A stretch of DNA of 64,000 nucleotides from Octopus vulgaris (lineage: Eukaryota): the NCBI GenBank assembly GCA_951406725.2, contig OX597818.1:67270001-67334000 (forward strand). The letters are read 5' to 3'. Positions within the stretch are counted from its first letter, which is position 1. Each line of letters opens with the position of its first letter. The position numbers and the translations under genes were made by a program. Positions 45,001 through 48,790 of the stretch are shown piece by piece. The notes beneath the pieces were generated by a model. The model was not told the origin of the DNA. It did no database searches and saw nothing but the letters and a program-made list of their open reading frames with translations.

Positions 45001-45048
<48 letters not shown>

Positions 45049-45459
45049 AATGTAGGATAAAAGCCTTTCGAAAAAAATTTTTATCAATGGCCAGCATATT
45101 AAAAAATTCCTTTAAAGGTTAAATTATAAACAACTTATAAATAAGGGCAAACGAAAAAATTTCTAATATCAAATATGCCGAAAATTGGACATATTGTCCA
45201 TTTACCATATAATTTTTTTTTCCCAGTACGCACGCTACCCGAAAAAAGGTCGACAGAAATCTCTAAAAATATTCCATTATTACCATATCGGACCGATTTC
45301 AGGGTTAGTTCAAAAAGAACCCCCGCTTTGTCAGTGATACATGTGGCAAAGAAGTAAATGAGATACTTACTCATATCCATGGAAGAAGCAAACACTAAGT
45401 CATGAGCACAACTAAGTACCCCAAATAAATCCAAAATAGAAATTTTCCAGCCCATTCAA

Positions 45460-45970
45460 GACACGTGCGAGTTGTTGAAGATGACAATGAACAGTTGTAT
45501 GGTTTGAACTAAGCTTTATTGCCAATTCTTCAACTGATAATGCAAGATTTTCTTCAAGTAATGCCTCAAGGAGCTTATCATCCAACTCAAATTGACGTCC
45601 TTTTCGATCTTCACCTTCAAGGCTGAAATCTTCACTTCTGAATTTTGCAAACCATCTTCTGCAAGTTCTTTCTTTCAAGCATTCTTTCCCTTAAACTGAG
45701 TGTATATTTCGAGTCGCTTCGGCTGCAGACTTCCCTTTTTTATACTCATAAAGCATTATGTGCCTCAAATGCTCATTGGATACTTCCATGTTAGAATGGG
45801 ATTTAATCAAAGACATTTTAATTCTGTTATTCTGTAAAATAATATTTAATTTCTTTAAATCTACACACATCCATACAAATAATTTTTAATTCCATCAGAC
45901 ATTCTAAAATTCTTTTAAATTTCATTCCATTTAAAAAAAAGGTAAAATCGGTCTGAACCAATTGGATGAC

Positions 45971-45974
<4 letters not shown>
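45460..45974 (-). mobile_element. mariner (Tc1/mariner) transposon 5' half, transposase pseudogene
   Basis: TA + TCAGGTCATCCAAT terminus; ATG at 45789 (MEVSNEHLRHIMLYEY…), frameshifted to ERTCRRWFAKFRSEDFSLE…R.GR…L..LLEEN…S.EELA.KL…TV..HL.QL. Confidence 0.85.
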
Positions 45975-46039
<65 letters not shown>

Positions 46040-46161
46040 TCACAATCAAGGAACGGCCATAATAGGCCATTCACCCACTAGAAATAACAGCCAAAAGCTT
46101 TAACCGCAAAATAACATTAATACCGTAAACCAGGAGAAAATTGAAAAACTTTTACCCTGTA

Positions 46162-46268
46162 ATTTCTTAGACGATGCACCGTTTCATCTACCGTTTAATG
46201 GTAAACTAACCTGATTAAATTAAATCAAGCCAATCCACCATAGGCCCTTAGACTCATCAGTAAGAAAT
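46162..46268 (-). ncRNA. type I hammerhead ribozyme (inverted unit)
   Basis: Reverse complement of 47327-47433. Confidence 0.8.
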
Positions 46269-46840
46269 AGCCAAATCGGGACAGATATTTTTCACGAGGC
46301 ATTCCTCTTGCTGCCTCGGCAGTATCTGACCTAAAATTTTCAAATCGTCGCACTCGCGCCAAATTTATCGGCAGCAAAAGAACCACCGATTCCGTTACGG
46401 AACTAACCAGAAAATTCATAATTAATCAATATAGGGTGGCAAAAAAATTTTGTAGAATTCTTTTGCCACCAGCGGCCTAGTAGGAAAAAATTAAATAGTC
46501 ATAAACCATTTTTTACGTTCAACATCAGCTTTTGGCTGTTATTTCTAGTGGGTGAATGGCCTATTATGGCCGTTCCTTGATTGTGATGTTGAACGTAAAA
46601 ATGGTTTATGACTATTTAATTTTTTCCTACTAGGCCGCTGGTGGCAAAAGAATTCTACAAAATTTTTTGCCACCCTATATTGATTAATTATGAATTTTCT
46701 GGTTAGTTCCGTAACGGAATCGGTGGTTCTTTTGCTGCCGATAAATTTGGCGCGAGTGCGACGATTTGAAAATTTTAGGTCAGATACTGCCGAGGCAGCA
46801 AGAGGAATGCCTCGTGAAAAATATCTGTCCCGATTTGGCT

Positions 46841-46948
46841 ATTTCTTACTGATGAGTCTAAGGGCCTATGGTTGGATTGGCTTGATTTAATTTAATCAGG
46901 TTAGTTTACCATTAAACGGTAGATGAAACGGTGCATCGTCTAAGAAAT
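46841..46948 (+). ncRNA. type I hammerhead ribozyme, tandem unit 1
   Basis: Stem I ATTTCTTA/TAAGAAAT (8 bp); CTGATGA 46849-46855; stem II GTCTA/TAGAT with long insertion; GAAAC; stem III ACGGT-GC-ATCGT; cleavage after GTC at 46940. Confidence 0.85.
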
Positions 46949-47326
46949 TACAGGGTAAAAGTTTTTCAATTTTCTCCTGGTTTACGGTATTAATGTTATT
47001 TTGCGGTTAAAGCTTTTGGCTGTTATTTCTAGTGGGTGAATGGCCTATTATGGCCGTTCCTTGATTGTGATGTTGAACGTAAAAATGGTTTATGACTATT
47101 TAATTTTTTCCTACTAGGCCGCTGGTGGCAAAAGAATTCTACAAAATTTTTTTTGCCACCCTATATTGATTAATTATGAATTTTCTGGTTAGTTCCGTAA
47201 CGGAATCGGTGGTTCTTTTGCTGCCGATAAATTTGGCGCGAGTGCGACGATTTGAAAATTTTAGGTCAGATACTGCCGAGGCAGCAAGAGGAATGCCTCG
47301 TGAAAAATATCTGTCCCGATTTGGCT

Positions 47327-47433
47327 ATTTCTTACTGATGAGTCTAAGGGCCTATGGTGGATTGGCTTGATTTAATTTAATCAGGTTAGTTTACCATTAA
47401 ACGGTAGATGAAACGGTGCATCGTCTAAGAAAT
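47327..47433 (+). ncRNA. type I hammerhead ribozyme, tandem unit 2
   Basis: Same fold; CTGATGA 47335-47341; cleavage after GTC at 47425. Confidence 0.85.
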
Positions 47434-47654
47434 TACAGGGTAAAAGTTTTTCAATTTTCTCCTGGTTTACGGTATTAATGTTATTTTGCGGTTAAAGCTT
47501 TTGGCTGTTATTTCTAGTGGGTGAATGGCCTATTATGGCCGTTCCTTGATTGTGATGTTGAACGTAAAAATGGTTTATGACTATTTAATTTTTTCCTACT
47601 AGGCCGCTGGTGGCAAAAAGAATTCTACAAAATTTTTTTGCCACCCTATATTGA

Positions 47655-47707
<53 letters not shown>

Positions 47708-47759: not shown

Positions 47760-48790
47760 ATGAAACCTCAAGATTTGCTGGTTAATCACATAATCGTTTT
47801 AATCTATAAAAATGCTGCATTCATAGCAAGGCAAGAAAGGAGGAATGTATTTTCCTGGTAAAACAGAAGTAAAAGTGTCTTTTTAATATTGAGTTCCCAT
47901 CAGATGAATGCAGCTTTACTCTTTTGCTTGTAGAGAGTATCATTACTGTTTCAATCTTAAAGCTCCGTAGAGCAGAATAATTTGTTCCATTCTACTTCTG
48001 TGAAGTGAGTCACAATGTTTCTCGGAGTCGGAGAGGATCAGCATAACTGAAAGATAGTTTTCCTGAAACACATTTATAAAACGTTGTTAATATTTGACAA
48101 GCTGTCAAGTGTTTCTCTCCGAAGTCTATCAGGTTTCTACGAAAAACTTTCTCCTTCTTCGTCTCTAAAACATTGTCTCTGTTTATGTAATGTATCATAG
48201 CTGCCATAGCTGTGAGTGATATACCTTAGTAATTCTGCACTCATATTAAGTCACATTCTTTTTAAGAAAGAAAGAATGCAGCCTTCTCATCAATTACTGA
48301 CAGATTTTATGGTAAACTGCTCATTTGCAAATGTATATTATTAAATGCTTTAAATTTCCAGATGCTGGAGGACCGTTGTACGCACCAGATGCCATCCTCA
48401 TTTAGAGTTGAGTTTGAATCTCGGAAAATTAATCTGATGCGTGAAGTTATTGACTTTGGTAATATGTTAATCTGAACAAGTTTCTAGTTAATGATGAGAG
48501 CTCCCTAATCCATAGATAGACACCCGAGGCTTTTTATTCTGTCTAATTTTAATTTTCTAGTCACTGATTTCATTAACACACTGTTGATTGTCAGTGCAAA
48601 GAGTAATGAGATGGATTTTAACTTGAACGTAGTTTTCTTCCTTTAATGTGGATCTGGTAATGAATTCACCGCTTTGTTTTCTTTCCAATGGGTAGTAGTT
48701 TCTTCTGGAAGGATTCAGTGTTCTAAATCGGCTGTTGCATAGTTATTACCGAGTTTGTCATTATCTGTTTTAGATTACCATCTTGCTTTT
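47760..48790 (-). pseudogene. highly degenerate CR1/L2-like RT relic
   Basis: Weak motifs (SYADP; NY..L…K.ET.MIL…K..KL); many stops. Confidence 0.3.

Follow-up and report, generated by a model that had tools for sequence, protein, structure and literature searches.

Animal non-LTR retrozymes are, like the octopus family described here, made up of tandem non-coding units of low GC content, each with a type I hammerhead motif, and they likewise have a self-paired monomer, target duplications longer than 4 bp and coexistence with Penelope-like elements (PLEs) (PMC7229834; bioRxiv 10.64898/2026.07.22.740005, in the passages cited here). They yield circular RNAs in vivo, and PLEs have been named as their candidate helpers (PMC7229834). 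Retrozymes have also been linked to pLTRs, and their mechanism of mobilisation is called open (bioRxiv 10.64898/2026.07.22.740005). The tail of PLEs is often present at one end only, and the mechanism that generates inverted ends with such a one-sided tail is itself named as open (PMC8557442, PMC3846280). A PLE protein nicks both AT-rich strands of the target, starts at two internal RNA sites, which define the tail, and extends both strands; in these in vitro experiments with the anole PLE, uncleaved RNA was used, cleavage was unnecessary and the start sites were alike between strands (PMC11167929). It has been proposed in print that PLEs mobilise animal retrozymes via circular RNA.

The window analysed here is a stretch of 64,000 nucleotides of Octopus vulgaris DNA (GCA_951406725.2, contig OX597818.1, positions 67,270,001 to 67,334,000). 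The initial annotation had placed within a (TA)n tract one minus-strand unit abutting about 2.3 plus-strand units, and this layout was reproduced with its coordinates. The insertion lies between two (TA)n target tracts, on the left 45974..46037, which is pure TA, and on the right 47660..47703; the target duplication is unreadable at this locus. Unit phases are counted from window position 47011 (phase 1), which places the predicted cleavage after phase 415. Arm A (46038..46527, minus strand) is one full unit plus 4-5 nt, and its 3′ end in the RNA sense, at 46038, is at a fixed site called A (phase 62). Arm B (46527..47659, plus strand) comprises 2.3 tandem copies with a period of 485 and 99% matches; its 3′-terminal segment (47557..47659, from end mapping) finishes at 47659, at a fixed site called B (phase 164). 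The two arms meet head to head at 46526..46527, phase 58 against phase 1, with a 1-nt overlap. As had been claimed, short indels are the sole differences between the window units: these are of 1-2 nt and of homopolymer type, with 0 substitutions and a divergence of 0.0000.

There are three type I hammerhead motifs in the insertion, marked by CTGATGAG at 46849 and 47335 on the plus strand and at 46260 on the minus strand. Motif 1 (46841..46948, plus) has an extra T in the helix II hairpin and a predicted cleavage site after 46940; motif 2 (47327..47433, plus), which is the family's commonest haplotype, has its predicted site after 47425; and the motif of arm A (46162..46268, minus), identical in sequence to the plus copy at 47327-47433, would be cleaved between 46170 and 46169. 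Between the GTC|TAAG sites that follow 46940 and 47425 lie 485 nt, a predicted monomer running from cleavage site to cleavage site (46941..47425, plus), so that the motif positions agree with the monomer boundaries annotated initially. The fold of this monomer is hairpin-rich and self-paired, as had also been noticed, and is more stable than 100 of 100 shuffles (z -4.63). Protein-coding sequence is absent, the longest stop-free frame within the window tandem being 97 codons. Next to the insertion, a decayed mariner-type transposon (45047-45973), with a match to the Mos1 transposase HTH at 45415-45690 on the minus strand (PF17906, E 1.5e-5), borders the TA tract that holds it. On the other side, a short open stretch between AG and GT (48362-48461, plus) is exon-like, with 0 Pfam matches, and given this stretch the insertion may be intronic.

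The window motif has the core CUGANGA...GAAA...UH together with stems I-III, which defines type I. Stem I has 8 bp (ATTTCTTA/TAAGAAAT), helix II is built from a base of 4-5 bp, an internal loop and a hairpin of 19 bp (an extension of about 65 nt), and stem III has 4 bp and a palindromic loop. The claim of a canonical type I hammerhead can thus be kept for the 8-bp stem I and the core motif, whereas the word canonical goes too far in view of the extended helix II, the palindromic loop III and a sub-threshold Rfam score: with Hammerhead_1 (RF00163), both plus copies reach 22 bits, under the gathering score of 34, and the minus copy is unlisted. The long helix II falls outside the 45 positions of that model. 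Rfam matches to microRNAs were rejected as TA-repeat noise.

Across full units, 11 positions of the core vary by less than 1% in the 349-355 family pieces that span the motif; for scale, 78 of the 469 unit positions have a minor allele at 3% or more. In these pieces N7 can be any of T, A, C and G and the cleavage base is restricted to C and A, while the pair 2.1-1.1 has switched from A-U to G-C in 19 of 349 and loop III alternates between two palindromes, TGCA and TATA. For 11 haplotypes, hand-chosen from two families and related in sequence, pairing is found in 95.4% of cells, compared with 29-45% in slid controls; seven pairs have changed on both sides, a number that 73 of 500 shuffles of these related haplotypes equalled. 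As far as sequence comparison can speak to function, the conservation of the core and the pattern of pairing are good indirect evidence of selection for cleavage. In the minimum-energy fold of the commonest haplotype, the core is paired with the cleavage strand (-34.7 kcal/mol, against -30.9 for the hammerhead-compatible fold, a gap of 3.8), and because this fold blocks the core, the commonest haplotype may cleave poorly. A palindromic loop III is described as a hallmark of those PLE hammerheads that are believed to cleave in dimeric form (PMC6765202), and 8 of 9 predicted Xenopus retrozyme dimers failed to cleave in vitro (bioRxiv 10.64898/2026.07.22.740005). The long helix II is conserved and may serve for ligation or for the binding of a protein.

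The repeat is a dispersed, multi-copy family with target duplications longer than 4 bp, by which a retrozyme is recognised. An exact 27-nt pattern from the 3′ core of the hammerhead has 955 hits in the genome (control, 0), the core pattern of a sister subfamily has 1040 and an exact end pattern 422; searching the genome with the unit gave 236 matches, from the 40 of 933 candidates that were scored. Subfamilies are about 12% apart, and the median divergence within an arm is 0.4%. The earlier description of a young, non-coding tandem element is supported; array units diverge by 0-0.4%. A second young family, of about 72% identity and with a unit of about 475 nt, has the tandem and inverted layout likewise (L233:5240-5700, L302-L331), as well as the same two ends (judged by eye); its stem III is palindromic throughout, and the base of its helix II contains a mismatch. 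A 447-nt contig from another organism (run X19, organism D) matches the unit (window 46776-47260), with a period of about 485, and the retrozyme family likely extends beyond Octopus vulgaris. The contigs of four sequencing runs cover 29, 29, 29 and 24 of the 29 bins of one monomer, although the RNA label of these runs is a guess, and contigs cannot reveal ends, strand or circles, so that this coverage counts neither in favour of expression nor against it; 20 runs contain part of the window stretch, none of them recorded as RNA. An unrelated fold-back element in TA (L119:2800-3370, L077:1-130) has another type I hammerhead motif, also with a long helix II. Small fold-back insertions in TA (L077, L096, L106, L110, L153, L155, L174) share a short motif with unit phases 4-21, and some of them have B-like ends; these insertions and the retrozyme possibly form a wider group using one helper.

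Parsing of 132 regions gave 133 insertions in which the ends were mapped; the regions were the window, 39 best hits, 32 with the core pattern (in genome order), 40 with the A-end pattern and 20 with the sister pattern. Clusters shorter than 60 nt, clusters at a region edge and relatives below 80% were excluded, and the sampling is biased, with 39 regions being best hits and 40 having been selected for the A end. The arbitrary start and end points that had been proposed are at odds with the outer ends, for which the whole family uses two fixed positions: site A (phase 55-68, mostly 61) or site B (154-179, mostly 162-167), about 103 nt apart. Two arms are present in 99 of the 133 insertions, with the 3′ ends outward in all, and 93 of these pair an A end with a B end (among them L046, which borders on Ns); the combinations A/A and B/B number 0 each, and the other 6 have one end unclear each. 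The 34 one-armed insertions end at A in 17 cases, at B in 16 and at neither in 1, and several carry, by eye, a stub of the other end. At least one flank is TA-rich in 127 of 133 insertions. Flanking direct repeats that are not pure TA were found for 23 of the 99 two-armed insertions: 7 are informative (13-15 nt; that of L211 is in non-repeat DNA), 2 are shorter (8 and 11 nt) and 14 are near-pure TA.

The inner 5′ ends are scattered round the unit, with an excess at phases 416-427, just 3′ of the cleavage site (15 starts against 5.4 expected; nominal p 5e-4, scan-corrected 0.07). The start phases of the two arms are within 3 nt of each other in 12 of the 99 two-armed insertions, and identical in 7. 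At 77 arm junctions, 43 overlap by 1-6 nt, 11 are blunt and 23 are gapped, these being bare counts. Stubs of 57-79 nt that end at A or B, and patchworks of short pieces, occur at L047:3970-4030, L072:341-397, L246 and L275; very short stubs and patchworks look like aborted priming events.

Arms of the same insertion disagree at 27 of 4124 polymorphic-site comparisons over 65 loci, 46 of which show no disagreement, whereas arms from different loci disagree at 24% of such comparisons. Among sample-private variants covered at least 3 times, 93 are single, 16 are fixed (14 across both arms) and 12 are partial, and these partial variants are unexplained by one circle. The median arm length is 639 nt and the maximum 6976 nt; the cleavage site is crossed by 177 of 207 arms, by 98 of them at least twice, with 384 passes, and a single arm of the 207 starts exactly there. 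B arms run past site A in 83 of the 93 A/B insertions, and both arms exceed 485 nt in 34 of the 93. Because the arms are identical to this extent and read through the site, both would share one RNA haplotype, continuous across the selected cleavage site. Such a continuous single-haplotype template is explained most simply by a ligated circle, a reading of the DNA copies which leaves room for some templates that may be linear, given the excess of starts at 416-427. For the earlier suggestion of a possibly circular template there are genomic signs of copying from a single monomer; the arbitrary start and end points that went with it are not supported, the outer ends being fixed and paired. The junction GTC|TAAGAAAT, which had been put forward as a marker of the circle, is also present in the genomic tandem and alone is no proof of a circle. 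At L298:2223-2787, one arm repeats in tandem a unit of about 239 nt with an internal deletion, which keeps the hammerhead and site A and is without site B; the other arm consists of full units. The deleted-unit arm may be a mini-circle product or a copied donor array. The A arm at L234:3493-3781 has a damaged hammerhead and resembles the unit at 73-81%, against 91-98% for the B arm; mixed templates, error-prone synthesis or an assembly error would each account for the difference.

Candidate helpers are at hand in the same genome. GIY-YIG candidates number in the thousands (6136 in a family search, 150 of them scored), and the protein searches for a partner scored 76 of 30322 and 83 of 32015 candidates. 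At least three young coding PLE families (L103, L169 and L051) have many near-identical intact frames with RT and GIY-YIG (RVT_1 + GIY-YIG), the frames being of 781, 775 and 776 aa. In two of these three families GIY-YIG is preceded by a cysteine motif, one that is attributed to Neptune and Nematis in PMC8557442. Upstream in the 781-aa family there is a 479-aa frame whose Pfam matches are unconvincing, and a pattern scan of the family's pLTR found no canonical hammerhead. The coding PLEs insert in (TA)n and have two end sites 32-40 nt apart; among 10 inverted copies, a short end is paired with a long end in all 6 that were evaluable, the third family having an internal TA run in the UTR (3 loci) and one further locus a single resolved arm. 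The copying by a PLE RT that the initial annotation had suggested is consistent with the Penelope-type footprints of the octopus repeat, i.e., TA targets, a one-end tail in inverted pairs and long target duplications.

Homology to the unit was found neither in the three young families nor in scattered other coding PLEs among the scored candidates, and because coding PLEs share no detectable sequence with the unit, PLE dependence rests on the matching footprints. As initially annotated, the window insertion lacks an RT or endonuclease ORF, its longest frame being the one of 97 codons, and no PLE protein match was found inside the parsed insertions; to the question whether copies are joined to an RT/GIY-YIG ORF, the answer is that none of the 133 parsed insertions contains or directly adjoins one. 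PLE hits are present in the flanks of 12 family loci, always with a TA tract between PLE and insertion, and these frames were rejected as attached partners for that reason. A 53-nt match near a GIY-YIG fragment at L072 was likewise rejected as a partner link, as it belongs to a 57-nt stub that stands apart, in a TA tract of its own. The interpretation of the locus as a PLE-copied retrozyme is, on balance, partly supported.

The reading that we consider probable, if by no means certain, is that of a non-coding hammerhead family inserted in trans by a PLE enzyme, which copies one probably circular 485-nt RNA from both nicked TA strands. A tandem array would be transcribed, its hammerheads would release monomers and a host ligase would circularise them, by analogy with the coral, mussel and axolotl retrozymes. 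The PLE enzyme would then nick both AT-rich strands about 13-15 nt apart, as the target duplications suggest, and one DNA end would prime at A and the other at B on the same RNA, as the A/B pairing and the identity of the arms suggest. Each enzyme would circle the template with strand displacement for a variable distance, and the two cDNA ends would be joined head to head, with homology slight or absent, in keeping with the junctions observed. A more far-reaching proposal, which we advance tentatively and would not quite call probable, is that the arrays record, in the genome, how a circular RNA made by the ribozyme was reverse transcribed in rolling-circle fashion by a PLE enzyme that primes both target strands, obligately at two different sites. 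If true, this would give a single account of the movement of animal retrozymes and of PLE inverted pLTRs with a one-end tail, and it would describe a parasite that is recognised through RNA structure, without sequence common to its helper.

Two-strand priming by a PLE could also have used an uncleaved or partly cleaved linear multimer as template, with the hammerhead merely trimming transcript ends. This is unlikely but deserves real weight, as it fits the excess of arm starts 3′ of the cleavage site, the 12 private variants that are only partly shared, the blocked minimum-energy fold and the 239-nt deleted-unit tandem of L298, which a copied donor array would explain; in addition, the anole PLE in vitro mainly used uncleaved RNA (PMC11167929). 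However, arrays are homogeneous (0.4% median) despite the gap of about 12% between subfamilies, and 16 private variants are fixed insertion-wide, and a linear template would therefore demand repeated one-unit bottlenecks, after each of which an arm could grow back to up to 14 units; exact starts at the cleavage site, at 1 in 207 arms against 384 passes, also speak against such a template. If, instead, a single priming event were followed by fold-back or self-priming to make the inverted arm, with an endonuclease trimming one tail (a self-priming model is given in PMC3846280, and 'EN-mediated resolution' in PMC8557442), the arms should be mirror images. The hairpin-rich RNA and the 12 two-armed insertions with nearly the same start phase, 7 of them identical, would suit this course, but the other 87 show unrelated start phases and either arm can be much the longer (in L297 the B arm is 1.3 kb and the A arm 6.9 kb; L035 has a long A arm and L276 a long B arm), so that neither arm mirrors the other. 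Self-priming is thus already contradicted for most copies, and as the general explanation it is improbable.

It is very improbable, too, that the unit belongs to an unseen coding PLE as its pLTR, with arrays that expanded locally as a satellite via unequal crossover. Xenopus retrozymes are described as pLTR-related, with local expansion proposed for them (bioRxiv 10.64898/2026.07.22.740005), and 133 insertions are a sample of a family with about 2000 hammerhead hits; in that sample, however, no insertion holds or directly adjoins an RT/endonuclease frame, the 12 PLE hits in flanks are all separated from the insertions by TA, and the precise A/B ends, target duplications and 0-0.4% divergence imply that multi-unit arrays were inserted ready-made. 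As for the inverted structure being an assembly chimera, microsatellite-flanked palindromes do assemble poorly and the locus is known from assembled contigs, but a chimera would mirror one end, whereas the A/B rule is seen at 93 loci on many contigs and target duplications are present, which makes an error of this kind exceedingly improbable. What makes the family valuable is its clean mechanistic footprint. Both the use of a circle and the origin of the one-sided tail can be tested in the tube, because there are about 100 scored young insertions, an end rule of 93:0 and a 485-nt candidate template, and because the start sites are mapped and intact candidate helper enzymes are present in the same genome.

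Compared with described retrozymes, the 485-nt unit is above the range of 170-400 nt given in PMC7229834 and within that of 51-972 nt given in bioRxiv 10.64898/2026.07.22.740005. Unlike the retrozymes in the cited passages of these two texts, the octopus family has mostly head-to-head inverted insertions, two fixed paired ends and a helix II extension of about 65 nt; and whereas circles have been demonstrated for coral, mussel and axolotl retrozymes (PMC7229834), for the octopus family a circle is predicted. With EN+ PLEs it has in common partial tandems, an inverted 5′-truncated arm and a one-end tail, and also (TA)n targets, target duplications, a hammerhead with palindromic loop III and a cleavage site upstream of both start sites; it differs from them, as they are portrayed in the same passages, in having no ORF, a tail of about 103 nt rather than 30-40 nt, and many-unit arms (PMC8557442, PMC3846280, PMC11167929), as well as in matching none of the checked coding PLE families in sequence. 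Non-autonomous Chlamys PLEs such as MRC1 likewise depend on PLEs, are non-coding and have pLTRs and multicopy insertions arranged head to tail, but their 3′ ends are similar to those of their autonomous partners, and the Chlamys clade is described as being without canonical hammerheads (PMC8557442); the octopus family has a constrained hammerhead and no partner match in the PLE families checked.

The octopus repeat lacks the RT + GIY-YIG ORF of an autonomous EN+ PLE and is a real, young animal non-LTR retrozyme, distinguished by inverted paired ends, a long tail and an extended helix II. In L1 twin priming, two target strands prime on one RNA, which results in an inversion with 3′ ends outward and a join at microhomology; there the position of the second site varies and the first cDNA ends in its vicinity, whereas in the octopus family both sites are fixed and both arms can overrun each other by several units. 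Among the papers that literature searches listed, none reports a hammerhead repeat from octopus or describes twin priming for PLEs. The retrozyme class and the one-sided tail were already known, while the paired-end footprint and the long helix II are new to the retrozyme texts compared, in the passages cited.
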